A stretch of 64,000 nucleotides of DNA from Escherichia coli (GCF_016026235.1 NZ_CP065613.1); one strand, 5' to 3'. Shown: positions 28,000 to 43,301, numbered from the stretch's first letter. The notes: generated from the letters alone by a model not told the origin. Program-made: numbers and translations.

Positions 28000-28764
28000 A
28001 TGAAAGATGAACGTCGCCCTATTTGCGAAGTGGTTGCAGAGAGTATCGAACGGTTAATTATCGACGGCGTACTGAAGGTCGGTCAGCCGCTTCCCTCGGA
28101 ACGTCGACTGTGTGAAAAGCTCGGCTTCTCACGCTCCGCACTGCGTGAAGGGCTGACCGTGCTGCGCGGGCGCGGGATTATTGAAACGGCGCAGGGTCGC
28201 GATTCTCGTGTCGCACGGCTTAATCGGGTGCAGGACACCAGCCCGCTAATTCATCTGTTCAGCACGCAGCCGCGAACGCTGTACGATCTGCTTGATGTTC
28301 GCGCATTGCTGGAGGGCGAATCGGCAAGGCTGGCGGCAACGCTGGGAACGCAGGCTGATTTTGTTGTGATAACCCGCTGTTATGAAAAAATGCTCGCCGC
28401 CAGTGAGAACAACAAAGAGATTTCGCTGATCGAACATGCGCAGTTGGATCACGCTTTCCATCTCGCCATTTGTCAGGCTTCTCACAATCAGGTGCTGGTG
28501 TTTACGCTGCAATCATTGACCGATCTGATGTTTAATTCAGTGTTTGCCAGCGTAAATAATCTCTACCATCGACCACAGCAAAAAAAGCAGATCGATCGCC
28601 AGCATGCGCGGATCTACAACGCGGTGTTGCAGCGGCTGCCGCACGTCGCCCAGCGCGCAGCACGCGATCATGTGCGGACCGTGAAAAAGAATCTCCACGA
28701 TATCGAGCTGGAAGGCCACCATTTGATTCGCTCGGCGGTGCCGCTGGAGATGAACCAGAGTTAG
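28000..28764 (+). CDS. glcC: GntR/FadR-family transcriptional activator of the glc operon
   Basis: Start at MKDERRPICEVVAESIER; the track ORF begins at an upstream TTG. Confidence 0.85.
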   Translation: MKDERRPICEVVAESIERLIIDGVLKVGQPLPSERRLCEKLGFSRSALREGLTVLRGRGIIETAQGRDSRVARLNRVQDTSPLIHLFSTQPRTLYDLLDVRALLEGESARLAATLGTQADFVVITRCYEKMLAASENNKEISLIEHAQLDHAFHLAICQASHNQVLVFTLQSLTDLMFNSVFASVNNLYHRPQQKKQIDRQHARIYNAVLQRLPHVAQRAARDHVRTVKKNLHDIELEGHHLIRSAVPLEMNQS

Positions 28765-28770
28765 CTGGTA

Positions 28771-29913
28771 TTAAATTTGCTTTTCATACAATCGGTAACG
28801 CTTGTACGGCTCCGCCCCAATGCGTTCCAGCATGTTATTCATGCCTGTATTGGTTTCGAGGATCCATGACATCTCCAGCGCATCGATCTTCCGGCGGGCA
28901 AACGGATCGCGTAAGGCTTCAATCAATAACAGCGCAATCACCGGGCCGATGCGGCTGAACTGATACTCGTCGCGCACGCCCATCAGCGGTACTCGCGCAG
29001 TTCGCACACCGCTGACTTTCAAACGCCACAGCAATTTTGCCCAGCCGAAGGGAAAGAGCGATCCGTTCAGATCGGCAATCGCCTCGTTGATGTTCGGCAA
29101 GCCGACAATAAACGCGCAGGGTGCAGAATCAATCTCAGCGATATAGATCATATCGTCCGGCACCAGATATTTAAGTTGATCGCCCATGGTCGCGAATTCA
29201 TGTTCGGTAAACGGCACAAATCCCCAGTTGTGCTGCCAGCCAGAGTTGAAAATCTCACGCAGGATCTGCATTTCTTCGGCAAACCGCTGACGATTGATGC
29301 AGCGAATGGTCACCTTTTTGCGCACCTGATCCATCAGTTTTTTTAGCGCCGGAGAGAAAGTGAGATCGGTTCGCTGCATCCACCACGCCAGTAAATCAAT
29401 GCCTTTGTGATAACCCAGTTGTTCAATATGCGCGGCATACCACGGTTTGCCGTGTGGCATCATCGCACAGGGTGGTGTGTCAAAACCTTCAATCAGTAAT
29501 CCGCTTTCCTGATTGATATTCAGGCTGAAAGGACCGCTGATCTTACTTGCACCTTGTGACTTCAACCACGCTTCCGCTGCGCCAAACAACGCGGCAAAAA
29601 CCTGCGGATCATCAATGGCGTCAATCATGCCGAAATGACCGGTATCTTCACCGTAACGCTCACGGTGCAAGGTATCTATTTGCGCGGTAATACGCCCAAC
29701 TATCTGCCCCGCTTTTTTTGCCACCCACGCCTGCCAGATGATATGGTCCGTCCCCGGATTTTTCGCAGACAAATGCTCGTTGCGTTCAATGAATAAAGGG
29801 GGTATCCAGTTTGGATCGTCGGGATAAAGTAATGACGGAAAAGCGATAAATGCCTTAAGGTCATTTTTATTAATTACTTTTTCAATTTTAATCATCAGCA
29901 GATCGCATTCCAT
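28771..29913 (-). CDS. yghO: YghO-family protein, putative GNAT-like N-acyltransferase
   Basis: 380-aa ORF convergent with glcC and divergent from the FAAL operon; the acyltransferase assignment is inferred, not motif-proven. Confidence 0.55.
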   Translation of the reverse strand: MECDLLMIKIEKVINKNDLKAFIAFPSLLYPDDPNWIPPLFIERNEHLSAKNPGTDHIIWQAWVAKKAGQIVGRITAQIDTLHRERYGEDTGHFGMIDAIDDPQVFAALFGAAEAWLKSQGASKISGPFSLNINQESGLLIEGFDTPPCAMMPHGKPWYAAHIEQLGYHKGIDLLAWWMQRTDLTFSPALKKLMDQVRKKVTIRCINRQRFAEEMQILREIFNSGWQHNWGFVPFTEHEFATMGDQLKYLVPDDMIYIAEIDSAPCAFIVGLPNINEAIADLNGSLFPFGWAKLLWRLKVSGVRTARVPLMGVRDEYQFSRIGPVIALLLIEALRDPFARRKIDALEMSWILETNTGMNNMLERIGAEPYKRYRLYEKQI

Positions 29914-30283
29914 AGTTCTGTGGGTAACAAATAATTAACGGTGACAAACAGGTTGCAACAGCAACGAATGGCACCTTAATAATCAACCCAATGAATACAA
30001 ACGACGAATAAATAGTATTTATTAATGATTACGATAAGGTCAAAGACTACACAGAAGCGCCACAATGCCTTTTGTCGATTTAAGGCGACCGGACAAGGCT
30101 TCTTCTTAATATATTCATAAATTAAATATCATTCACAATAAAAACAAAAAACTTAAACTCATTATTTAAATCAATGTTCATTTTCACACCGATGAAAATA
30201 CTATCTCATTTATCTTTTATGCCTATATAATCCACCGCATTATTGTCATTTTATTTTTGATATCCAATTTTTTCGTGGTGTAT
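29914..30283. promoter_or_regulatory. AT-rich divergent promoter region between yghO and the FAAL operon
   Basis: About 370 bp of very AT-rich DNA with A/T tracts between two divergent genes. Confidence 0.35.
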
Positions 30284-32005
30284 ATGTCTAATAAAATCTT
30301 TACGCATTCCCTACCTATGCGCTATGCCGATTTTCCAACGCTGGTTGATGCTTTGGACTACGCCGCTCTGAGTAGCGCCGGAATGAATTTTTATGACAGA
30401 CGTTGCCAACTTGAAGATCAACTGGAATATCAGACGTTAAAAACGCGTGCCGAAGCTGGTGCGAAGCGGTTGTTATCGCTGAACCTGAAAAAAGGCGAAC
30501 GCGTGGCGCTGATTGCCGAAACGAGTAGCGGGTTCGTAGAGGCTTTTTTTGCCTGTCAGTATGCTGGCTTAGTCGCCGTCCCGTTGGCGATTCCAATGGG
30601 CGTCGGTCAGCGGGATTCCTGGAGCGCCAAACTCCAGGGTTTACTGGCAAGTTGCCAGCCCGCAGCCATTATCACTGGTGATGAGTGGTTGCCACTGGTC
30701 AATGCCGCGACGCATAACAACCCCGAATTACATGTTTTAAGCCACGCCTGGTTTAAGGCATTACCGGAAGCCGATGTTGCGCTCCAGCGTCCAGTTCCGA
30801 ACGATATCGCCTACCTCCAGTACACCTCCGGCAGCACCCGTTTTCCCCGTGGCGTCATTATCACCCATCGCGAAGTGATGGCTAATCTACGTGCTATAAG
30901 CCACGATGGCATTAAATTACGCCCTGGCGACCGCTGCGTCTCCTGGCTGCCTTTCTACCATGATATGGGACTGGTCGGCTTTCTCCTGACCCCCGTCGCC
31001 ACGCAACTTTCAGTAGATTATTTGCGCACTCAGGATTTTGCCATGCGTCCTTTGCAATGGCTTAAATTGATCAGTAAAAATCGCGGCACCATTTCCGTTG
31101 CGCCGCCGTTTGGCTATGAATTGTGCCAGCGCCGCGTGAATGAAAAAGATCTCGCTGAACTGGATCTTTCCTGCTGGCGCGTCGCTGGTATTGGTGCAGA
31201 ACCCATCTCCGCAGAACAACTCCATCAATTCGCTGAATGTTTCCGTCAGGTTAACTTTGACAATAAAACTTTCATGCCGTGCTACGGACTGGCAGAAAAT
31301 GCGCTGGCTGTCAGCTTCTCTGATGAAGCCTCCGGGGTTGTGGTTAACGAAGTGGATCGCGACATCCTCGAATATCAGGGTAAAGCCGTCGCGCCGGGTG
31401 CAGAGACACGCGCCGTATCGACTTTCGTCAACTGCGGCAAAGCGTTGCCGGAACATGGTATTGAAATCCGCAATGAAGCAGGTATGCCGGTCGCGGAACG
31501 TGTGGTAGGCCATATTTGCATCTCCGGTCCCAGTCTGATGAGCGGTTACTTTGGCGACCAGGCTTCGCAAGACGAGATTGCCGCGACGGGCTGGTTAGAC
31601 ACCGGCGACCTCGGTTATCTGCTGGACGGTTATCTGTATGTCACCGGACGCATTAAAGATCTGATTATTATTCGTGGCCGTAATATCTGGCCGCAGGATA
31701 TTGAATATATTGCGGAACAGGAACCGGAAATTCATTCTGGCGATGCGATTGCTTTTGTTACCGCCCAGGAAAAAATCATTTTGCAGATCCAGTGTCGGAT
31801 CAGCGATGAAGAACGTCGCGGACAGCTTATCCACGCGCTGGCAGCACGGATCCAAAGCGAATTTGGCGTAACAGCGGCTATCGATCTGTTGCCGCCCCAC
31901 AGCATTCCCCGAACGTCCTCCGGCAAGCCTGCCCGTGCGGAAGCGAAAAAACGTTATCAGAAGGCTTATGCTGCAAGCCTTCATGTGCAGGAATCCCTGG
32001 CATGA
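30284..32005 (+). CDS. fatty-acyl-AMP ligase / acyl-ACP synthetase-like adenylating enzyme
   Basis: Adenylation motifs YLQYTSGSTRFPRGV and GWLDTGDLGYL; about 573 aa from the internal ATG (track ORF starts at TTG 30257). Confidence 0.75.
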   Translation: MSNKIFTHSLPMRYADFPTLVDALDYAALSSAGMNFYDRRCQLEDQLEYQTLKTRAEAGAKRLLSLNLKKGERVALIAETSSGFVEAFFACQYAGLVAVPLAIPMGVGQRDSWSAKLQGLLASCQPAAIITGDEWLPLVNAATHNNPELHVLSHAWFKALPEADVALQRPVPNDIAYLQYTSGSTRFPRGVIITHREVMANLRAISHDGIKLRPGDRCVSWLPFYHDMGLVGFLLTPVATQLSVDYLRTQDFAMRPLQWLKLISKNRGTISVAPPFGYELCQRRVNEKDLAELDLSCWRVAGIGAEPISAEQLHQFAECFRQVNFDNKTFMPCYGLAENALAVSFSDEASGVVVNEVDRDILEYQGKAVAPGAETRAVSTFVNCGKALPEHGIEIRNEAGMPVAERVVGHICISGPSLMSGYFGDQASQDEIAATGWLDTGDLGYLLDGYLYVTGRIKDLIIIRGRNIWPQDIEYIAEQEPEIHSGDAIAFVTAQEKIILQIQCRISDEERRGQLIHALAARIQSEFGVTAAIDLLPPHSIPRTSSGKPARAEAKKRYQKAYAASLHVQESLA

Positions 32006-32916
32006 ATCAAACTGTCGCGGTGACGGGCGCTACCGGTTTTATCGGTAAATATATTATCGATAACCTGCTCGCCCGCGGCTTTCACGTTCGCGCATTGACG
32101 CGTACTGCCCGCGCTCACGTCAATGACAATCTCACCTGGGTGCGCGGTTCGCTGGAAGATACTCATTCACTTAGCGAACTGGTTGCCGGAGCCAGTGCGG
32201 TGGTCCATTGCGCTGGGCAAGTGCGCGGACACAAAGAAGAGATTTTTACCCACTGTAACGTTGACGGCAGCCTGCACCTGATGCAAGCGGCAAAAGAGAG
32301 CGGCTTTTGCCAACGTTTTCTGTTTATCTCTTCGCTGGCGGCGCGCCATCCCGAGCTCTCCTGGTACGCAAATTCCAAACACGTCGCCGAACAACGGCTG
32401 ACTGCAATGGCTGACGAAATTACGCTGGGCGTTTTTCGCCCGACAGCCGTGTATGGTCCCGGCGATAAAGAGTTAAAACCGCTGTTTGACTGGATGCTGC
32501 GCGGCCTGCTGCCACGACTTGGTGCACCAGATACACAGCTCTCTTTCCTGCACGTCACCGATTTTGCGCAAGCAGTGGGTCAGTGGTTAAGCGCCGAAAC
32601 TGTACAGACGCAAACCTATGAATTATGCGATGGCGTCGCTGGCGGCTATGACTGGCAACGCATACAGCAACTTGCCGCCAACGTCCGTTGCGGTTCCGTG
32701 CGAATGGTTGGTATTCCTCTGCCGGTACTCACCTGCCTTGCGGATATCAGTACCGCGTTGAGTCGCCTGGCAGGTAAAGAACCTATGCTGACCCGCTCGA
32801 AAATTCGTGAATTAACCCACGCCGACTGGTCGGCAAGTAATAACCGTATTTCTGAAGATATTAATTGGTTTCCCGGGATTAGCCTGGAACACGCATTACG
32901 CAACGGGCTATTTTGA
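32002..32916 (+). CDS. NAD(P)-dependent epimerase/dehydratase-family (extended SDR) reductase
   Basis: N-terminal Rossmann motif VAVTGATGFIGKYI; start overlaps the upstream stop by 4 nt. Confidence 0.7.
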   Translation: MNQTVAVTGATGFIGKYIIDNLLARGFHVRALTRTARAHVNDNLTWVRGSLEDTHSLSELVAGASAVVHCAGQVRGHKEEIFTHCNVDGSLHLMQAAKESGFCQRFLFISSLAARHPELSWYANSKHVAEQRLTAMADEITLGVFRPTAVYGPGDKELKPLFDWMLRGLLPRLGAPDTQLSFLHVTDFAQAVGQWLSAETVQTQTYELCDGVAGGYDWQRIQQLAANVRCGSVRMVGIPLPVLTCLADISTALSRLAGKEPMLTRSKIRELTHADWSASNNRISEDINWFPGISLEHALRNGLF

Positions 32917-32947
32917 TTGTCTTGTTTAAAGGTGTGTTAACGTTTCT

Positions 32948-33196
32948 ATGGTAAATCGTGAAATAGTAATGGATTACATCCTTTCCTGTTTACAGGATTT
33001 GGTCGAAAACGGTGTGGAAATTAAGCCCGACAGCGATCTCGTCAACGATCTTGGCCTGGAGTCGATCAAAGTGATGGATCTCTTAATGATGCTGGAAGAC
33101 AGATTCGATATTTCCATTCCTATTAATATTCTGCTGGATGTCAAAACCCCTGCGCAATTAATGGAAACTCTACTTCCATGGCTGGAGAATAAATAA
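32948..33196 (+). CDS. acyl carrier protein
   Basis: 82 aa with the phosphopantetheine-attachment signature DLGLESIKVMDL. Confidence 0.7.
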   Translation: MVNREIVMDYILSCLQDLVENGVEIKPDSDLVNDLGLESIKVMDLLMMLEDRFDISIPINILLDVKTPAQLMETLLPWLENK

Positions 33197-34368
33197 TGGG
33201 GCTATACGATAAATATGCGCGCCTTGCTGGCGAGCGACTGCAATTTAGTGACAACGGGTTAACACCGTTTGGCACCTGTATTGATGAAGTGTATTCCGCC
33301 ACCGAAGGCCGGATCGGCAATAAAAAAGTGATTCTGGCCGGGACCAATAATTATCTCGGTTTAACCTTTAATCATGATGCCATCAGCGAAGGTCAGGCAG
33401 CGTTAGCGGCCCAAGGCACCGGCACCACCGGTTCTCGTATGGCAAACGGCAGTTATGCGCCGCACCTGGCGTTAGAGAAAGAGATTGCCGAGTTTTTCAA
33501 TCGCCCTACCGCTATCGTTTTTTCAACCGGTTATACCGCTAATTTAGGCGTCATCAGCGCACTTGCCGACCATAACGCCGTGGTGTTACTGGATGCCGAC
33601 AGCCACGCCAGTATTTATGACGCCTGTTCTCTCGGTGGCGCGGAAATTATTCGTTTCCGCCATAACGATGCTAAAGATCTGGAACGGCGCATGGTTCGCC
33701 TCGGTGAACGGGCGAAAGAGGCGATTATCATCGTTGAGGGCATCTACAGCATGCTCGGTGACGTTGCGCCGCTGGCGGAAATTGTTGATATCAAACGTCG
33801 TCTCGGTGGTTATTTGATTGTCGATGAAGCGCATTCGTTTGGCGTGTTAGGCGCAACAGGGCGCGGACTGGCTGAAGCTGTCGGCGTTGAAGATGATGTG
33901 GATATTATCGTTGGTACTTTCAGTAAAAGTCTGGCCTCGATTGGCGGTTTTGCTGTCGGTTCGGAAGCGATGGAAGTGCTGCGCTACGGCAGCCGCCCGT
34001 ATATTTTTACCGCCTCTCCTTCTCCGTCCTGCATTGCGACCGTGCGCTCGTCGTTAAGAACTATTGCCACACAACCAGAGCTGCGGCAAAAGCTGATGGA
34101 TAACGCCAACCATCTGTATGACGGTCTGCAAAAACTGGGTTATGAGTTAAGTTCACATATTAGCCCGGTAGTGCCAGTAATAATCGGTTCGAAAGAGGAA
34201 GGTTTACGCATCTGGCGCGAGCTTATCTCGCTGGGCGTGTATGTGAATCTTATCCTGCCGCCTGCCGCGCCTGCAGGCATCACGCTGCTGCGCTGTAGCG
34301 TAAATGCTGCCCACAGTCGTGAGCAAATCGATGCCATCATTCAGGCATTTGCTACTCTGAAGCAGTAA
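33196..34368 (+). CDS. PLP-dependent alpha-oxoamine synthase (BioF/Kbl/serine palmitoyltransferase family)
   Basis: 390 aa with the conserved PLP-lysine context GTFSKSLASIGGF and a DEAHSFG motif; start overlaps the ACP stop by 1 nt. Confidence 0.75.
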   Translation: MGLYDKYARLAGERLQFSDNGLTPFGTCIDEVYSATEGRIGNKKVILAGTNNYLGLTFNHDAISEGQAALAAQGTGTTGSRMANGSYAPHLALEKEIAEFFNRPTAIVFSTGYTANLGVISALADHNAVVLLDADSHASIYDACSLGGAEIIRFRHNDAKDLERRMVRLGERAKEAIIIVEGIYSMLGDVAPLAEIVDIKRRLGGYLIVDEAHSFGVLGATGRGLAEAVGVEDDVDIIVGTFSKSLASIGGFAVGSEAMEVLRYGSRPYIFTASPSPSCIATVRSSLRTIATQPELRQKLMDNANHLYDGLQKLGYELSSHISPVVPVIIGSKEEGLRIWRELISLGVYVNLILPPAAPAGITLLRCSVNAAHSREQIDAIIQAFATLKQ

Positions 34369-34373
34369 TGTGA

Positions 34374-34406
34374 GCCCGCCGTGGTGTTTGCGCCACGGCG
34401 GGTTTA
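34374..34406. terminator. bidirectional terminator hairpin between convergent operons
   Basis: cccgccgtggtg / tttg / cgccacggcggg perfect stem followed by ttt, between the AOS stop and the convergent permease gene. Confidence 0.55.
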
Positions 34407-35483
34407 ATGTTGTCTGTCATACCAATACACCAGGCTCAACGCCACCAACACAAACGCTACCGGTAAACCGAGCGCGGTAACAGGTGCGCTTAACGCAAAT
34501 AGCAATCCCAGATTAACCATGATTTGATAGCTGATCCAGGTGAGTAAGCCCACGATGACGCCTACAGCGAGACGGCTACCCATCCCAGGCGAACGCGGGG
34601 CAGTAAAGGTAAACGGCACAGCCAGCAAAATCATCGCCAGGGTCAGGATGGGTTGCCCCAGTTTTTCCCACAGTGCAAGGCGGTATTCGCTGCTGGGTTG
34701 CCCGGTTTCCTGCAAATAATGGATGTAATGATTAAGCTGACGGACAGAAAAAGTATTCCCCGGCATTGATAACTCTTCAAGATTCATACTGGTGAAGGCC
34801 GATTGCCAGGCAAGATTATCTAATGTTTCCAGCGTTTCTTTGCCATTCAGCCATTTTTTATGATTCACACCATGCAGGACCCACGTTTTGTCGTCTTTAA
34901 TGGTGGCACTGCGTGCATAAATGTAGGATTCAAGCGAGAGATCGTCGGGATAATGAAATATCTCCACGCCCACCGGCTGGCCCTGCTCGTTCAGCGATTT
35001 CACCGTCACAAATTCATTACCACGCCTGGCCCACAGCATATTGCCGGTAATGTCATCGTCCTCCCCCAACGCGGTGGCGGTCGATTTGATTTGCAGCGCC
35101 TGTTGCTGCAATGGCGACGCCACCCACTCATCTATCGCGCCTAACGAAACAGTCCACAATATCCCGGCAACCAGCGCCACCAGTGCAATACGGAAGATAG
35201 AAAACCCCGTGCTGCGAATGGCGGTAAGCTCACTGTTTTTCGATAACTGCCCCAGGCCAACAATCCCTCCCAATAAGGCGATAAACGGCGAAAGTTCGAC
35301 CAGTGTGCGCGGTAAGGTCATTAGCACCACCAGCACCGCCTGAGTCCAGCGATAACCGCCCGGGCTGACATCATCCAGTTCGTTAATCAGGTTGAAGGTG
35401 GTAAAAAGCGGCAGCAATAGCCCTGCGGCGGCGGCAAAACCGAGAAAGAGATGACGGATTAAATAGCGACTGAAAACATTCAT
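34404..35483 (-). CDS. LptG-like permease (YjgP/YjgQ family), paralog
   Basis: Start at MNVFSRYLIRHLF gives a 4-nt ATGA overlap with the upstream gene; six predicted TM segments around a large periplasmic loop. Confidence 0.6.
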   Translation of the reverse strand: MNVFSRYLIRHLFLGFAAAAGLLLPLFTTFNLINELDDVSPGGYRWTQAVLVVLMTLPRTLVELSPFIALLGGIVGLGQLSKNSELTAIRSTGFSIFRIALVALVAGILWTVSLGAIDEWVASPLQQQALQIKSTATALGEDDDITGNMLWARRGNEFVTVKSLNEQGQPVGVEIFHYPDDLSLESYIYARSATIKDDKTWVLHGVNHKKWLNGKETLETLDNLAWQSAFTSMNLEELSMPGNTFSVRQLNHYIHYLQETGQPSSEYRLALWEKLGQPILTLAMILLAVPFTFTAPRSPGMGSRLAVGVIVGLLTWISYQIMVNLGLLFALSAPVTALGLPVAFVLVALSLVYWYDRQH

Positions 35484-36550
35484 CGGGAAAATTTCTGCAG
35501 CAAAGAGAAGTCGCGTGCGACCAGCATCAGCAGGCCCATTAGCATGAGTCCGGGTACTAACCACAAACCAGGAATGAGGGGAATCGCGCCGTTAGCCACC
35601 AGCGTACGGCAGACGTCGCCGCCATAAAAAATGGCAATAAACAGCAACGTCAGTGGCAATAATGTTGAAAATCGCCCTTGCCGCGGTTTTACCCGACTTA
35701 ATGAAATGGCCAGCAGCGCCATCAACAATGCTGTCAGGCCACGGCTTTGCCGCCATTGCAGTTCGGCATGATCGGCAGGAAATACAGAGCGTGCCAGCTC
35801 CGTGACCGATTTTGCTTTGCGTTTGACGTTAGGGCTTTGATCCAGCGGATTCAGATGTAATTGCAGATTACGGTAGATCTGTTCATTGTCGTCACGCCCC
35901 TGATGATCGAGAAGATAGGCAGTGCCGTTGTGCAACATAACGGTCGGTTTCTCGGGTGATGGGTCAACCACATCAACCGAACGGGCGCGGAAAATGCGGG
36001 TTCGATTGGCAGTAGAAGTATAAATCAGCGCGTCAGTCAGGCGATTATTATCCTGATCAACCGTCTGCGAAAGGATCATTCGTCCGTTATCGTTAGTGTT
36101 AAATTTCTTTGCCCGCAACTGGCGAACATCCAGCTCCGACTGCGACTGCTGCTCCAGTTGATAAATCTGCGCATAAGCCCACGGACGACCATACATCGAC
36201 AGAAGGGTGACAAAAATACTTAGCGGTATCGCCAGATAAAGAACGGCTTTGTACAAGCGTCCCGGACTGCCCCCCGCCGCAGAGATAGCGGTAATTTCCG
36301 AGTCGGTATACATCTGCCCTAGCGTCACGCCAACTGACACATACAGACCAACAGGTAACAACATCTCCAGTGCAATCAGCACTTTGTAGAAAACGATATC
36401 CAGCACAACATCAAGAGCTAATGTCCCATTTGCCGCTTCGGTCAGATAACGCTGTGCGGAGTAGCTGGCGAAAATAAAGATCAGAAAACCGACGATAATC
36501 AGCACCAGACGGCGCGTACCACGCATGATGTAGTGTTCAACCAGCTTCAT
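35480..36550 (-). CDS. LptF-like permease (YjgP/YjgQ family), paralog
   Basis: 356 aa with the same architecture as the neighbour; TM1-loop region GQMYTDSEITAISAAG resembles recalled LptF (YTESEITVMHACG). Confidence 0.6.
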   Translation of the reverse strand: MKLVEHYIMRGTRRLVLIIVGFLIFIFASYSAQRYLTEAANGTLALDVVLDIVFYKVLIALEMLLPVGLYVSVGVTLGQMYTDSEITAISAAGGSPGRLYKAVLYLAIPLSIFVTLLSMYGRPWAYAQIYQLEQQSQSELDVRQLRAKKFNTNDNGRMILSQTVDQDNNRLTDALIYTSTANRTRIFRARSVDVVDPSPEKPTVMLHNGTAYLLDHQGRDDNEQIYRNLQLHLNPLDQSPNVKRKAKSVTELARSVFPADHAELQWRQSRGLTALLMALLAISLSRVKPRQGRFSTLLPLTLLFIAIFYGGDVCRTLVANGAIPLIPGLWLVPGLMLMGLLMLVARDFSLLQKFSR

Positions 36551-36580
36551 CTCACTAACGCCCTCAATCCTTTGAATTTT

Positions 36581-37144
36581 TTATTCATTGATCAGTTTCT
36601 GCGCCAGCGCAATGACATGATCTACCTCTTCCGGCGTCAGGCTGCCGTCCTTTGCCCACTGAATTTGCCCGGTTTTATTCAGCACCAGAATGGTTGAACT
36701 CTGCTCCGGCAAGCGCCAGGCAACGCGTCCCTGTCCATTGCCGTCAATAACGAATTGCGCCCACGGATAGCGGCGTTTATTTTTTTCGATTTTGCCAACG
36801 ACAAAATAGCCAGTACCAAAGATGGCATCATCAGTGTTCACAATGGTGGTGGGCTGAAAACGATCCTGTGGAAAGTTTGCCGCTTCAACCGCTTTAATTA
36901 ACAGTGAGTTCTTCTTCTTCGCTGACTTACGCCCGGCGATATACTGGATAATGCGGACTTTTCCCGCCAATTGTGTGCTGTTCCACTTTTGGTAGTGAAT
37001 TTCGTCGTCGCTATTCAGAAGCAGCTCGCCGCCTTCCTGAATATAAACAGGGGTAACCGTTTTGCCAGTGACGAAATTGTGTGCCTGCACACCCGGGGCT
37101 AAGAGCATGATAATCAGCGCAATAATCAAACGAGATGACATCAT
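36581..37144 (-). CDS. periplasmic protein with signal peptide (YtfJ-like)
   Basis: Signal peptide MMSSRLIIALIIMLLAPGVQA; resemblance to YtfJ is from memory only. Confidence 0.45.
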   Translation of the reverse strand: MMSSRLIIALIIMLLAPGVQAHNFVTGKTVTPVYIQEGGELLLNSDDEIHYQKWNSTQLAGKVRIIQYIAGRKSAKKKNSLLIKAVEAANFPQDRFQPTTIVNTDDAIFGTGYFVVGKIEKNKRRYPWAQFVIDGNGQGRVAWRLPEQSSTILVLNKTGQIQWAKDGSLTPEEVDHVIALAQKLINE

Positions 37145-37152
37145 TGCTCCGG

Positions 37153-37977
37153 TTATAGCGGAAAACGCGAAATCAGCAGCTCTAAGCGCTGGCGAATATC
37201 GCTATCCAGCGCCACCGGTGCATCATACGACTGGCGGTTTTCCATATCATCCGCCACCATGTCGTCGTGTTTATCCCCCATCAGGCCATTAATGGCGGCG
37301 AGGAAACGGGAAATCTGTAACGCCTCTTTATTTTCAGGATCAAGCGATCTTAAGGTGTCGTAATAAGAAACCTGCTGGCTGATGATTTTTCGCACATCAT
37401 GAAATTCCCTGCCGGTTAGTCGCGGTTTGGCAATTATCTCTTTCAGGGCATGCATTTGCTTTTGCCGATAGGCAATAAAACCGCTTACGCTTTCTAACTG
37501 GCTATGGCGTAATGAATAGTTCACCAACGACCAGACCGGAGAGCTTAAATAAATTCGTAACAGGTTGCCGTAATACGACACAATATTTTTCTTACCGTTA
37601 CGAAATCCGTCCTGAAAACGTCCCAGAAAAACGGTCGTTTTGCCGAATAAAAATCTGGCCTGATGCTTTTTTAAATACAGCCGTTGTGCAAAACGTAGAT
37701 GCTTGTAGCGCGCTCGCATGTATTTAAACTGTTTACGCTCGTCTGTCGTCAGCTCATCGCCTTTGGCTTGTTTGCGAATTAAACGAAGTAATTCCTGACG
37801 ATCAACGCCATTGAGCCAGAATTGCAGGCATAACGCGTAATTATCATGGATGATTTCGGTGGTACAACATAGTGCGATAGTCGGCGGCAAACTGACCTGG
37901 GCATCAACAACATCATCTTCCTCAATCGCAACAAATAGATGCTCGCTCGCCTCAAGCGGGAAATATTTTCTCATCAT
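37153..37977 (-). CDS. hypothetical cytoplasmic protein (274 aa)
   Basis: ORF whose start overlaps the flippase stop by 1 nt; no recognisable motif. Confidence 0.45.
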   Translation of the reverse strand: MMRKYFPLEASEHLFVAIEEDDVVDAQVSLPPTIALCCTTEIIHDNYALCLQFWLNGVDRQELLRLIRKQAKGDELTTDERKQFKYMRARYKHLRFAQRLYLKKHQARFLFGKTTVFLGRFQDGFRNGKKNIVSYYGNLLRIYLSSPVWSLVNYSLRHSQLESVSGFIAYRQKQMHALKEIIAKPRLTGREFHDVRKIISQQVSYYDTLRSLDPENKEALQISRFLAAINGLMGDKHDDMVADDMENRQSYDAPVALDSDIRQRLELLISRFPL

Positions 37978-39326
37978 CAGGATTTCTCTCCGGCTGCGTT
38001 ATAAAGCAAGGAATGGCGCTGAAAAAAAGCCTTTAAGATCGGAATTAGCGAAAGCACCACATCCAGACATTGACCGCCGAAATAAGCAAACGCTGCTCCC
38101 AGCACGCCAAACAGATGACAGAACATGAACAGCAATACGATGTAGCCGATTGAGGCGATGGTTTGCGCCACGAGAAAAGCGCGCTGTTTTCCCGCCATCA
38201 ATAGCAATGACTCCTGAGGGAAGCCCAGCATCGAGATCACAATTGCGCCCAGCATCACCTGAATCAGGTCATACGCTTCGAGATACTTAACGCCAAACAC
38301 CAGCGAAATGAGCGGCTTGCCGACGATCAACACCGCGAGCGCCACCAGAATACCGATTCCGCCCGCCAGTAAACCGGACTTCACACCTAACAACCACGGT
38401 CTGGTGGTGCGCGGATCTAAACGCATCACCTCTGGGTAAAAACTTTTACCCAGCAAACCCGCTGGCGTTCCGGCGGCGTCGAAGAATGTCATGGCGATTT
38501 TAAATAACCCGGCGACAGCGGGTCCTAACACGATCCCCACCAACACTGTGCTGCACGAGTTACGCGCCGACCAGATGGAGTGGGCAATGTTGGTTGACCA
38601 GACAAAACTCCACGCGCCTTTAATGTGTCGGGCAGACTCAAACAGATTCAATTTGAAGGCGTTATGGATATTTCTGCGGCGTAATTCGCGCGCGGCAAAC
38701 CACCAGTACATGGTGCCGCCAACCAGATTCGACACGTACCAGGCAATAACAAAACCCGCAAAACCAAAGTCAAAATACCAGGCTGCGACGCTCCCCGCTG
38801 CGCGCAGAAAAGGTTTCGTCGCCTGCTGTACAGCAATCAAATCAAAGCGATCTACCGCACGCAGAATGCCGGTCGGCGTGGAGGAAGCCATTGAAGGAAT
38901 GAGCGTGCAATACAGCGCTGCCAGCCAAAAGCTTTGGTCATCCAGACCTAATGAATGGGAAAGAAAAGGGAGTAAGGCAATGCCGCCGACAATCGCCACC
39001 GCGCCGCTGACGATATCCAGCGAGAAGGAAAATGAGACGACATTGCGAAATTGCTGCGGATTATTGTTGGTTAATGCTGGTGTTCCGTACTGAACCACCA
39101 GCTGCCATGTCTGAAACTTAATAAAATCGCTGATCGACTTGGCGTACGATTGCACAATCACCAGTACGCCAAACATGGCGGGCGTCATCCCTTTACCGGC
39201 ACACGAGAGCGCCAACAGACCCAGCAAGGCGCTCACGACATTACTGGAGCCTAACCAGGCGCTATTGCGAATAATGGTGCGAAACGCGCCATCTGCAAAC
39301 CAATGTTTGATGTTAAAACCCGCCAA
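37977..39326 (-). CDS. yghQ: MOP-superfamily (Wzx-like) polysaccharide/lipid flippase
   Basis: 449-aa protein with about 12 hydrophobic segments. Confidence 0.65.
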   Translation of the reverse strand: MAGFNIKHWFADGAFRTIIRNSAWLGSSNVVSALLGLLALSCAGKGMTPAMFGVLVIVQSYAKSISDFIKFQTWQLVVQYGTPALTNNNPQQFRNVVSFSFSLDIVSGAVAIVGGIALLPFLSHSLGLDDQSFWLAALYCTLIPSMASSTPTGILRAVDRFDLIAVQQATKPFLRAAGSVAAWYFDFGFAGFVIAWYVSNLVGGTMYWWFAARELRRRNIHNAFKLNLFESARHIKGAWSFVWSTNIAHSIWSARNSCSTVLVGIVLGPAVAGLFKIAMTFFDAAGTPAGLLGKSFYPEVMRLDPRTTRPWLLGVKSGLLAGGIGILVALAVLIVGKPLISLVFGVKYLEAYDLIQVMLGAIVISMLGFPQESLLLMAGKQRAFLVAQTIASIGYIVLLFMFCHLFGVLGAAFAYFGGQCLDVVLSLIPILKAFFQRHSLLYNAAGEKS

Positions 39327-39371
39327 TTCAGCCTGACCTTATCGTTGATAGTAAAAAGTATCCCGCCAGCC

Positions 39372-40130
39372 TTAAGTTAAACTTCGGCGGTCAGAAACGA
39401 TGGCAACCAGAGAAACCGCCTTCTGTGCCTGTTCCAGCACTTCGCTGTAGGGCGCTCTGGAATCAATCTCAAGAATTTTTGTGCCGTTATAGCCAATCGT
39501 CGACATAACACTGATTTTGTCCTGCAGCTCGGCATAGTCATGGTCAGGCTTGCGGGAGATGGCAGTCTCAATATCAATGCCCAGGCGAATAATTAATTCC
39601 GGGCGATATTGCGCCATTTGTTGGTATAAACGCCGTTCGCGCTGCGCCAGAAACATGCTGATTTTCCCGGTCGCACGTTCGACGCCAATCCCCGGTCCGT
39701 CATAATAAAAGCCCGAAATTTCAGCCTGCGGGAAGCGATCGCTGACCACCAGAACGCCACTTTGCGCCAGTCGCTGAACCTTGCGTAGATTCGCCATTCT
39801 TCGCAGCGAGAAGCAGTACATAATCACCGCCGCCCATAGCGCCGGAGATTTGGTTTTCATGCTTTGGGTTTTCGAGGATTTGGCCGCCAGTCGCCGTTCC
39901 AGCCAGACGCCAACCAACGGCAATCGTTTGATTTTGTCGCCGTCTTCGCCGGAGAGCAGCCCCAAATAGCGGCGCTCGGTTTGCCAGTGTTGTTGCAGCG
40001 ATTTCACCAGGTCGGTGGTCAGTGTGGATTTACCGGTGCCATCACACCCGACCACCGCAATCAGCCCCGGAATGTAGTTGGGCTGCGGCGCGGTTGTACT
40101 AATAACAGTTTGTGTTTGTAGTGCATCCAT
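39372..40130 (-). CDS. yghR: P-loop NTPase, kinase-like
   Basis: Walker A VGCDGTGKST; shares DRFPQ and SRKPDH motifs with two neighbouring paralogs. Confidence 0.65.
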   Translation of the reverse strand: MDALQTQTVISTTAPQPNYIPGLIAVVGCDGTGKSTLTTDLVKSLQQHWQTERRYLGLLSGEDGDKIKRLPLVGVWLERRLAAKSSKTQSMKTKSPALWAAVIMYCFSLRRMANLRKVQRLAQSGVLVVSDRFPQAEISGFYYDGPGIGVERATGKISMFLAQRERRLYQQMAQYRPELIIRLGIDIETAISRKPDHDYAELQDKISVMSTIGYNGTKILEIDSRAPYSEVLEQAQKAVSLVAIVSDRRSLT

Positions 40131-40161
40131 TCGTTAAATCATCCCCTATCCATTTTGGTGA

Positions 40162-40875
40162 TCAAGAAAGCGCGGCGTGAATTGCGCGTAGTGACGCTTG
40201 CAGAATTTCATCGGCTGGTTGCCGACCATCCAGTTCAAGGATCTTTGCGCCATTGAATGTCAATTGCGGCGTAACGGCGATTTTTTCCTGTAACGCTGCC
40301 AGTTGGTGGTCAGGTTTACGCGCAAACGCGGTTTGTTCATCAATGCCAAGACGAATCAACAATACGGGTAAATAAGACGCCATCCATTGGTACAGCTTCA
40401 ACTCGCGCTGCCTTAACATTTTTATCCAACCGTTACCGCCCGTGGTTTTTGCCAATTGCGGGCCATCAAAGCGAAAACCCGGCACTTCAACCTGCGGGTA
40501 GCGGTCGGTGATGAGCAGATGGCCTTGCTGGCTTCTACACAACATTTTGCGAAACTTGTACGCCCGCCAGCAGGAAAGCAGATAGATAACCAGCGCAGTA
40601 ATATTGCCAGGCGGTGTTGAGGGCTTTTCGTGCACATGTGCCGCTTTACTTCGCAGATAACGCCCAAAAGGTGCGCCAATAACAGGGAGCTGTGAAATCC
40701 ATTCGCCAATTCGCCCGGACGATTGCCCGAGATAAATGCGTTCTGTTGGCATTCTTGCTGCCAGTTCATTTACCAGGCTTGCCGTGAGGGTCGATTTACC
40801 TGAACCATCACATCCTACAATGGCAATAACACGCACTGGCGTGGAATTAATTATTGACATATTACGTTGATTCAC
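40162..40875 (-). CDS. yghS: P-loop NTPase, kinase-like
   Basis: Walker A VGCDGSGKST, plus DRYPQ and ARKPDH motifs. Confidence 0.65.
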   Translation of the reverse strand: MNQRNMSIINSTPVRVIAIVGCDGSGKSTLTASLVNELAARMPTERIYLGQSSGRIGEWISQLPVIGAPFGRYLRSKAAHVHEKPSTPPGNITALVIYLLSCWRAYKFRKMLCRSQQGHLLITDRYPQVEVPGFRFDGPQLAKTTGGNGWIKMLRQRELKLYQWMASYLPVLLIRLGIDEQTAFARKPDHQLAALQEKIAVTPQLTFNGAKILELDGRQPADEILQASLRAIHAALS

Positions 40876-41048
40876 GAAAAACCCGGCAGTAAATAATGTA
40901 TTGAATATTACGTGGTCCGTGCTCAGAATATCCGTTCAACCTTATTGTGACAATGGTTAATTGTGACATTGACCTGAATTACGCTTTCATAAAAACATAT
41001 TAACCAAATAAATATTTTGGATGGATATTTAAATTTAAGGATATATTC

Positions 41049-41741
41049 ATGCAGTCAATAACACCTCCATTAATTGCCGTTATTGGTAGCGATGGTTCAG
41101 GCAAGTCAACGGTGTGTGAACATCTCATTACCGTTGTCGAAAAATATGGTGCTGCCGAAAGAGTTCATTTAGGAAAACAAGCCGGAAATGTCGGTCGTGC
41201 AGTGACAAAATTACCGTTGATGGGAAAATCCTTACATAAAACAATTGAACGAAATCAGGTGAAAACAGCAAAAAAATTGCCAGGACCAGTTCCGGCGCTG
41301 GTAATTACAGCGTTTGTCGCCCGTCGCTTACTGCGCTTTCGTCATATGCTTGCCTGTCGTCGTCGCGGGTTAATTGTTCTAACCGACCGTTATCCTCAGG
41401 ACCAAATTCCTGGCGCTTACGATGGTACGGTGTTCCCACCTAACGTTGAAGGTGGTCGTTTTGTCTCATGGCTGGCAAGCCAGGAACGTAAAGCGTTTCA
41501 CTGGATGGCGAGCCATAAGCCTGATCTGGTCATCAAACTCAATGTCGATCTAGACGTGGCCTGCGCGCGTAAGCCTGACCACAAAAGGGAATCGCTGGCA
41601 AGAAAGATAGCCATAACGCCACAGTTAACCTTTGGTGGTGCACAACTGGTTGATATCGACGCCAATCAGCCACTGGAACAGGTGTTAGTTGATGCAGAAA
41701 AAGCGATTACGGATTTTATGACCGCGCGTGGTTATCACTAG
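41049..41741 (+). CDS. yghT: P-loop NTPase, kinase-like
   Basis: Walker [10 protein letters not shown], plus DRYPQ and ARKPDH motifs; divergent from yghS. Confidence 0.65.
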
Positions 41742-41789: not shown

Positions 41790-43301
41790 TTAAATCAACT
41801 GCAATGCTATCCAGTACAGCCCACCAGAAAGAAAAATCGCCGCCGGTAAAGTAAATACCCACGCCATCAGGATGCTGGTTACCGTTTTACGCTGTAACCC
41901 ACCGCCGTCCACCACCATCGTCCCTGCAACTGCAGACGAGAGGACGTGTGTTGTGGAGACGGGCATCCCAATATAACTGGCAAGACCGATAGACACTGCC
42001 GCCGTCATTTGTGCCGCCATGCCTTGCGCATACGTCATGCCGCGCTTACCAATCTTCTCACCGATGGTCATCGCTACACGACGCCAGCCAATCATGGTGC
42101 CAATGCCGAGCGCCAGTGCTACCGCCATGATGATCCACACCGGAGCGTACTCAATGGTGCTTAACATATCGCTGCGAAGTTTTTTCAGCAGGTTCTGGTC
42201 TTCTTTACTGACGCCTGGCGGTTTCGCCAGCTTCGCGGAGGTATCAGAGATGCACAGCATAATGCACAGCATAATGCGGCGCAGCTGGCTGCGCTGACTC
42301 ACGCTTAACGGCTCGTAACTTTCCATATTGCCTGGCAGCATCGTTTTAACGCGCGCAATCGCATCAAAGGTATTTGCCGGATGACAGTGAAACTCCGTCA
42401 CTTGCGCGCCATCAGTAGATGCCGCAGGCAATGGAGGTTCCATCGTAATCAACTTCTGCGGCAGTTCAGGATGCTGTTGCAGGTAGTGTTCGAAGTTGGT
42501 GACGGCATCGCGGGTACGGGTAATTTCATAGCCGGACGCGTTCATATTGACGACGAAGCCAGCAGGGGCAATCCCCACCAATACCAGCATCACCAGGCCG
42601 ATCCCTTTCTGCCCGTCGTTAGCGCCGTGCGAAAACGCCACGCCCGCAGCGGAAACAATCAGCGCAATACGCGTCCAGAATGGCGGCTTACGTTTGCCTT
42701 TTTTCTTTTTGCGATCTTCCGGAATGCGGTGAATACGGTCACGCTTTTTCGTTCCGCTCCAGTAGCGTCGCAGCAGGAATATCAGGCCTCCCGCAATGAC
42801 CAGGCCGACGATAGGGGAAACAATCAGCGAGGAGAAAATTTTGGTCACTTCACGCAGGTTTAACGCATCCATCACCGATGAGCCGGTTAACAGCGCGTTG
42901 GTTAAACCGATGCCGATAATCGCACCAATCAAGGTGTGCGAACTGGAGGCCGGTAAACCAAAGAACCACGTTCCCAGGTTCCAGATAATCGCCGCCAGCA
43001 GCATGGAAAAGACCATCGCCAGACCGTGAGTTGACCCCATATTCAGCAGCAAATCGGTTGGTAACATATGGACAATGGCATAGGCAACGCTAAGTCCGCC
43101 CAATAACACGCCAAAAAAGTTAAAAAATGCCGCCATCACCACAGCAAGTTGTGGTTGCATGGCACGAGTATAAATAACGGTTGCCACCGCATTCGCCGTA
43201 TCATGAAAACCATTGATTGCTTCGTAGAACAACACAAATGCCAGAGCAAGTAATAACAAAAGCCCTGTGTATATATCAAGGCCAACAAATAAATTTAGCA
43301 T
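41790..43301 (-). CDS. pitB: low-affinity inorganic phosphate transporter
   Basis: 503-aa PiT-family polytopic protein in the position of pitB; contains an in-frame 12-bp tandem duplication (see findings). Confidence 0.8.

Follow-up and report, generated by a model that had tools for sequence, protein, structure and literature searches.

A direct repeat between the divergent yghS and yghT genes of Escherichia coli and a predicted sigma-70 promoter that overlaps one of its copies

Proteins that bind tandemly repeated DNA words typically use sites with periods of 10-11 or 21-22 bp, near integral numbers of helical turns, and the tandem direct-repeat sites of response regulators of the PhoB, OmpR and ArcA type have a period of 10-11 bp. 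Among short interrupted palindromes bound by helix-turn-helix proteins, the operators of phage 434 repressor read ACAA-N6-TTGT, and the MlrA site contains two TTGTACAA words. Sites of the cAMP receptor protein (CRP) read TGTGA-N6-TCACA, usually match this core at 8 or more of 10 positions, and are centred at -41.5, -61.5, -71.5 or the like from the transcription start. Sigma-70 promoters pair a -35 TTGACA with a -10 TATAAT, 16-18 bp away, and transcription begins 5-9 bp past the -10. These systems form the background against which we have analysed a pair of identical 9-mers located between the divergent yghS and yghT genes of Escherichia coli, in a stretch of 64,000 nucleotides (GCF_016026235.1, NZ_CP065613.1) that is called the window below and whose coordinates are used throughout. 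The pair had been taken in a first-pass annotation for the candidate operator of a locus-specific regulator, with some resemblance to a CRP half-site. We propose another reading, to which we give about an even chance: the functional element would be the core sigma-70 promoter of the yghS operon, on the minus strand, and the exact repeat would be largely incidental.

The gap between yghS and yghT is 173 bp long and has a GC content of 31%, compared with an average of 52% for the window. On one side lies yghS (40162-40875, minus strand, GTG start), which encodes a P-loop kinase-like protein and heads a co-directional cluster of seven genes in the order yghS, yghR, yghQ, a hypothetical gene, a YtfJ-family gene and the LptF-like and LptG-like genes; the hypothetical gene encodes a 274-aa protein with no match in Pfam or NCBIfam. 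On the other side lies yghT (41049-41741, plus strand), a paralogue of yghS (36% identity) and of yghR (33% identity). The placement of the repeat between these two divergent genes, as first annotated, is borne out by the RefSeq annotation of K-12 and of strain P15-385. As for published data, overexpression of SlyA raised yghS 3.1-fold and two data sets on the H-NS regulon include the gene (PMC5797941), and a FlhDC genomic SELEX peak has been assigned to the yghS/yghT spacer (PMC9962212). The FlhDC sequence proposed in the latter study (CAGGCCGGAAATGTCGGTCGT GCAGTGACAAAATTACCGTTGAT) maps to coding sequence of yghT (about 41181-41224) and not to the intergenic DNA. In the literature searched, none of the papers that mention yghS or yghT reports a factor bound at the repeat; a search of published text for the repeat word returned primers and coding sequences only, a match to the 434 hex gene being irrelevant, and the Cappable-seq, ROSE, SMRT-Cappable-seq and Kim 2012 data searched contain no transcription start mapped for either gene.

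The gap is part of a larger island, which is intact in most E. coli and which in non-K-12 E. coli corresponds to about 28763-41741 of the window (7888-20866 of L016). Next to the yghS cluster stands a group of genes for a fatty acyl-AMP ligase, an NAD-dependent epimerase/dehydratase, an acyl carrier protein and a serine palmitoyltransferase (spt), after which comes yghO. The island also contains the LptG-like and LptF-like permeases, the YtfJ-family protein, the 274-aa protein, yghQ (flippase-like) and yghR, yghS and yghT, which are three paralogous P-loop kinase-like genes. In K-12, an IS5 and a truncated yghQ stand in place of the intact island. The gene set recalls the sphingolipid/ceramide clusters of bacteria, for example that of Caulobacter. 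In Klebsiella (L021), Mangrovibacter (L022) and Serratia (L023), the genes that come after yghT encode an aminotransferase of class I/II (spt-like, 390 aa) and an 86-aa carrier protein; the presence of spt-like and carrier genes directly after yghT ties yghRST to the lipid cluster and not to pitB. The 173-bp gap is thus probably the control region of a lipid-related island.

Some additional observations were made on the genes around the gap. A 16-base word, ATGCACAGCATAATGC, is repeated at offset 12 in pitB (42250-42277, minus strand), yielding a four-residue tandem duplication (IMLC IMLC) and a PitB open reading frame of 503 aa, compared with the 499-500 residues annotated or called at other loci. 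Many YghT orthologues in the databases (P0024, P0031, P0089 and others) are entered as 241-244 aa long versus 230 aa in E. coli; at the loci fetched, these proteins begin at the position of the E. coli start (for example with MESIKPP in Citrobacter), and the additional residues must therefore lie elsewhere than at the N-terminus. A 262-bp contig of an assembly labelled Nocardioides malaquae (L013) shows 99% protein identity to the end of E. coli yghT and very likely reflects assembly contamination.

The repeat word itself, ATTGTGACA, is found twice without mismatch on the plus strand, at 40944-40952 (copy 1) and 40960-40968 (copy 2), and no further occurrence was found on either strand when the whole window was searched. 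The first-pass annotation had correctly recognised two identical 9-mers, but it placed the start at 40945, one base off, and gave a spacing of 15 bp where the copies are 16 bp apart, both start to start and centre to centre. With their flanking bases, the copies read ATTGTGACAAT and ATTGTGACATT, and the K-12 repeat, at an estimated 3,133,790-3,133,840 of U00096.3, is identical to that of the window, which comes from a non-K-12 strain. Copy 1 and the next two bases make up an 11-bp palindrome, ATTGT-G-ACAAT. Because the units are nearly self-complementary in this way, the direct repeat is simultaneously an imperfect inverted repeat, TGACAAT-GGTTA-ATTGTGA, centred at 40957, a feature that the first-pass annotation had not noted. 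The repeat hardly stands out against chance. Direct pairs of at least 9 bases at offsets of 9-30 occur 17 times in the window versus 5.0 +/- 2.3 times in dinucleotide shuffles, indicating that real sequence is generally rich in such pairs, and a pair of this kind was present in 4.0% of 20,000 shuffles of the 31% GC intergenic region alone, a figure that is uncorrected for the many intergenic regions of the window. The repeat is therefore mildly unusual at most.

Conservation within E. coli does not help to interpret the site. Of 5,426 complete E. coli genomes, about 4,685 carry the locus, and the 40-mer that bears the repeat is identical in 96.3% of these, compared with 98.9% for the left flanking 40-mer and 84.5% for the right one. 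The repeat is thus kept among strains, which the first-pass annotation had considered a relevant check, but its flanks are about as invariant and strain conservation is uninformative. The one strain variant inspected, TTGACC to TTAACC at 40971, falls outside the 9-mers. In E. coli JNEC-KY203, an IS1 is inserted immediately left of copy 1, at a position equivalent to about 40939/40940 of the window. This insertion parts the repeat and yghT from yghS and from the predicted -10 box described below, and would represent a natural promoter-disruption allele.

The divergent arrangement of yghR-yghS and yghT is also found in other Escherichia species, Citrobacter, Hafnia, Pseudocitrobacter, Shimwellia and Pluralibacter, and it recurs too in Sodalis, Erwinia, Klebsiella, Serratia and Mangrovibacter; across the taxa with this arrangement, YghT identity ranges from 97% down to about 68%. 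We aligned versions of the region, about 170 bp long, from 13 taxa and scored identity to E. coli over the 10 non-Escherichia taxa. Relative to a mean of 0.52 for the region, the top two 8-mers, GTGACAAT (40947-40954) and CAGAATAT (40924-40931), are tied at 0.86. GTGACAAT, which combines the six 3' bases of copy 1 with two more, is invariant in all 14 block-bearing sequences aligned. Another conserved block, TTAATTGT (40957-40964, identity 0.75), covers the end of the spacer and the 5' part of copy 2. When all 165 possible 9-mers are ranked by conservation, copy 1 comes 23rd and copy 2 62nd. The first three bases of copy 1 are kept in 0, 5 and 3 of the 10 non-Escherichia taxa and the last four bases of copy 2 in 4, 4, 5 and 0, copy 2 being conserved in its 5' part (ATTGT) only. 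E. albertii, E. whittamii and Hafnia show TGTGGC as the 3' part of copy 2, the C. freundii group TGTCGT and Pseudocitrobacter TGTCAG; C. amalonaticus and Sodalis have lost copy 2 and kept GTGACAA at copy 1. Outside Escherichia, nine lineages have copy 1, and TGT is retained at the copy-2 position in seven of them. The conserved blocks do not coincide with the frame of the 9-mers, and the repeat unit is therefore not the unit under selection. From the alignment, it appears clear that part of the site is under purifying selection across genera. The original proposal that the spacer is regulatory DNA thus holds for a shared divergent control region, partly conserved across genera, but not for the 9-mer as its conserved unit.

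The position of the conserved blocks suggests a promoter. GTGACAAT (reverse complement ATTGTCAC), the conserved core of copy 1, would supply the -35 element TTGTCA (40948-40953, minus strand; 5/6 to TTGACA), five of whose six bases lie inside copy 1. The predicted -10 element, TATTCT (40925-40930, minus strand; 4/6 with A2 and T6), would be located seventeen bp downstream, inside CAGAATAT, so that both hexamers are contained in the two best conserved 8-mers of the region. Sigma-70 RNA polymerase would start near 40918, giving a 43-nt leader to the yghS GTG, and would transcribe yghS, yghR, yghQ and the genes behind. Relative to this predicted start, copy 1 extends from -34 to -26, copy 2 from -50 to -42 and TTAATTGT from -39 to -46. 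The conserved 5' part of copy 2 (TAATTGT) may provide polymerase with an A/T-rich contact upstream, or form one half of an operator that overlaps the promoter, and the identity of copy 2 with copy 1 would be largely incidental, helped by near self-complementary units in a region of 31% GC. We infer the use of the promoter, its start position and any role of copy 2 from the sequence, its conservation, the hexamer matches and the conserved spacing.

Several results bear on this predicted promoter. TTGTCA-17-TATTCT was the sole promoter-like match of a consensus scan over 40780-41140. A second scan used a position matrix of our own, the scores of which are rough because its hexamer frequencies come from general knowledge. 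Ten of the taxa scanned with it keep the block, namely E. coli, E. whittamii, E. albertii, two Citrobacter, Hafnia, two Pseudocitrobacter, Shimwellia and Sodalis, and in each of them the same promoter was the top minus-strand match. Between the hexamers, the spacer is 17 bp long in nine of these taxa and 16 bp in Shimwellia, its sequence diverges, and the -10 element ends 47-54 nt ahead of the yghS start in all ten. On a rough count, each strand offers some 720 possible hexamer pairs, of which only about 9 would have their members within the two blocks. As to the score, the observed matrix value is attained in 9% of region shuffles, and 1.6 matches to the consensus are expected by chance: promoter-like matches are cheap in an AT-rich region, and it is thus positional conservation, not the match as such, that argues for the promoter. 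C. amalonaticus and Sodalis keep copy 1 and the promoter without copy 2, suggesting that the left element works alone. Klebsiella, Serratia and Mangrovibacter are devoid of the block and show a different, proximal promoter-like site instead, which suggests that the block and the distal promoter come and go together. The SlyA and H-NS reports (PMC5797941) also count for the promoter, since yghS is reported there to be transcribed and regulated.

The sequence hints at more than a promoter. No taxon with the block has replaced the non-consensus T of TTGTCA, and this invariant base and the upstream A/T block together suggest more than polymerase contacts; likewise, the conservation of TTAATTGT and of TGT at the copy-2 position in 7 of 9 lineages hints at an extra constraint, for example a bound protein. 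On the plus strand, too, weaker promoters can be made out in the same blocks, namely TTGAAT-17-CAGAAT in E. coli and GTGACA-17-TAGTAT or GTGACA-17-TATTTT in Citrobacter and Hafnia.

Other candidate promoters are present in the gap. The proximal site, 27-29 nt from the yghS start, is TTGAAC-16-TACAAT in both Klebsiella and Serratia, and Mangrovibacter has TTTTCA-17-TATAAT. Sodalis has both the distal promoter and TTGAAC-16-TACAAT, and the block ATTGTAT, in the area of the proximal -10, is widely conserved. The E. coli counterpart of the proximal TACAAT is TTCAAT (40900-40905, minus strand), possibly the -10 element of a second, weaker yghS promoter. The likely yghT promoter lies at 40990-41018 on the plus strand, with a -10 element TATTTT (41013-41018) and an aligned but poor -35, TAAAAA (40990-40995). 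Shimwellia, Pluralibacter and Erwinia carry TTGAGG-17-TATTTT about 30 nt ahead of the yghT start codon, and AATATTTT (41011-41018) has an identity of 0.70. The repeat copies are centred at -77 and -61 from a yghT start predicted near 41025 and may thus play a role in yghT activation, a role that the geometry permits and nothing else supports.

The main rival to the yghS promoter, and one that can coexist with it because an operator is compatible with a -35 element at the same place, is a palindromic operator of the approximate form TGACAAT-N5-ATTGTSA, through which a dimer of a helix-turn-helix protein, the gene of which lies elsewhere, would control one or both divergent genes by repression or activation. 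We consider this operator possible but doubtful. The imperfect inverted repeat spans 19 bp (40948-40966), and its centre would lie near -39 relative to the yghS promoter and at about -68 relative to that of yghT. Its arms are symmetric at 6 of 7 positions, the inner five (ACAAT/ATTGT) being perfect, and it is the sole close match (1 mismatch) to TGACAAT-N5-ATTGTCA in the window. The inner arms are perfect in six lineages (Escherichia, C. freundii, L028, Hafnia), around 5-bp spacers that read GGTTA, GCCTA, GGGTA and GACTA, and reach 4/5 in three others (Pseudocitrobacter, L025 and Shimwellia), and C. freundii and Pseudocitrobacter, with TGTC in the right arm, come closer to full symmetry. Conservation of the two arms is 0.82 and 0.78, relative to the regional mean of 0.52, and that of the outer parts of the repeat 0.60 and 0.42. 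Conservation of the non-consensus T of TTGTCA also favours an operator, and the TTAATTGT/TGT pattern fits its right arm as well as it fits an A/T-rich polymerase contact. However, C. amalonaticus and Sodalis have kept the left arm and lost the right one, and the left arm is fully accounted for as a -35 box. Moreover, the island contains no regulator gene for such an operator, the window contains no second copy of the motif above chance, including in the other divergent region of the island (29906-30275), and the literature searched reports no factor bound at the palindrome. The consensus sequences of sigma-54, sigma-E, Fur, ArcA, PhoB, BasR, DnaA, LacI, IHF and of GntR-type and LysR-type regulators are not known to fit the site convincingly, a comparison to which we attach no weight. 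It would also have to be asked whether the site does anything at all: repeats of this size are common and promoter-like matches are expected by chance in AT-rich DNA, so that the repeat and the blocks could in principle reflect chance and slow drift in a short intergenic region. We find this improbable, given that GTGACAAT and CAGAATAT stand at 0.86 versus 0.52, with their spacing preserved, across taxa whose YghT proteins are 71-86% identical.

Readings in which the 9-mer, the TGTGA word or a transcript of the palindrome is the active element fare worse. If the site were a direct-repeat operator, each 9-mer would be bound head-to-tail by one regulator subunit; the repeat is indeed exact in E. 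coli, GTGAC recurs at 16-bp spacing in Shimwellia and TGTG does likewise in Hafnia, L025, L028 and E. albertii. Yet the 9-mer is not the conserved register, as the ranks of its two copies indicate (23rd and 62nd of 165), copy 2 is lost in two lineages that retain copy 1, the repeat is statistically unremarkable, and a 16-bp period, about 1.5 helical turns, places the copies on nearly opposite faces of the helix, all of which makes this reading very unlikely. The only DNA-binding protein annotated within 20 kb on either side is GlcC, of the glycolate operon, about 12 kb away. With no cognate regulator gene nearby, and with a 9-mer that is not the conserved unit, the operator of a locus-specific regulator that was first suggested is not supported. 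YghO was considered as a local regulator and rejected, having no Pfam or NCBIfam match; one paper treats it as an acetyltransferase candidate only. Binding of cAMP-CRP to one or both TGTGA words, with activation of yghT or yghS, could be envisaged from the presence of two perfect half-sites and from the position of the candidate site starting at 40946, whose centre would lie near -71.5 of the yghT start (near -55.5 for the other candidate, the start itself being a prediction). As partner half-sites, the two words have TTAAT and CCTGA, each of which shares just 2 of 5 positions with TCACA, giving each candidate 7/10 for the core, and a partner score of at least 2 is reached by 34 of the 84 TGTGA words in the window, which is chance level. 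The window holds 23 sites with two or fewer mismatches to TGTGA-N6-TCACA (shuffle mean, 26.4), and neither candidate is one of them; the second TGTGA varies across taxa, the partner half-sites are never near TCACA in any taxon, and yghS/yghT is not listed as a CRP target in the main-text tables of the literature searched. The half-site resemblance therefore dissolves on inspection of its partners and of its second, non-conserved word, and a CRP site is highly improbable. We judge it just as far-fetched that the palindrome folds into a functional hairpin within a long leader RNA of yghT, made from the plus-strand TTGAAT-17-CAGAAT with a start near 40938. The plus-strand RNA folds at -8.4 kcal/mol (z = -2.6), and several substitutions, A-to-G at 40966 among them, would preserve G-U pairing in the plus-strand transcript alone, but covariation over 14 sequences is at background (76.6% paired versus 75.8% in shuffles, with a score reached by 159 of 500 shuffles), the conserved stem is a 5-bp A/U-rich one only, Rfam gave no match (best E-values about 0.4, far under the gathering scores) and the plus-strand upstream promoter that the leader requires is weak and itself predicted.

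What the analysis brings is one predicted promoter, and perhaps one operator, for an unstudied divergent control region. Its value lies in the context: in non-K-12 strains the yghS cluster adjoins genes that resemble those of a sphingolipid-type pathway, and the expression data point to H-NS silencing and SlyA counter-silencing. It is tempting to speculate that TGACAAT-N5-ATTGTSA would be the operator of a trans-acting regulator, overlapping the -35 element and switching an H-NS-silenced island for lipid biosynthesis and export, although we regard this scenario as rather unlikely. For studies of the island, the bases of the predicted core promoter show where reporter fusions and point mutations belong, and experiments are better not built around CRP or around the 9-mer repeat as a unit.

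How then does the site compare with known systems? Like CRP sites, it carries the TGTGA word, twice and upstream of divergent promoters, but the words are direct, not inverted, and there is no second half-site. Like the sites of the PhoB, OmpR and ArcA type, it has two identical direct words, and the minus-strand word contains TGTCA as in pho boxes; unlike them, it has a period of 16 bp, one conserved copy and no two-component system at the locus. With the operators of the 434 and MlrA type, it shares inverted arms around a variable centre, ACAAT-N5-ATTGT (ACAA-N7-TTGT), that overlap a predicted -35 element. It departs from the 434 operators by a spacing that is one base off, and from both types in that no XRE-type or MerR-type regulator is linked to the locus and the right arm is dispensable in two lineages. 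The predicted yghS promoter has features of an ordinary sigma-70 promoter, with a TTGTCA that matches at 5/6, a 17-bp spacer of drifting sequence, a TATTCT that matches at 4/6 and a distance of 43 nt to the start codon; what sets the yghS site apart from such a promoter is its upstream A/T block and its invariant non-consensus base.
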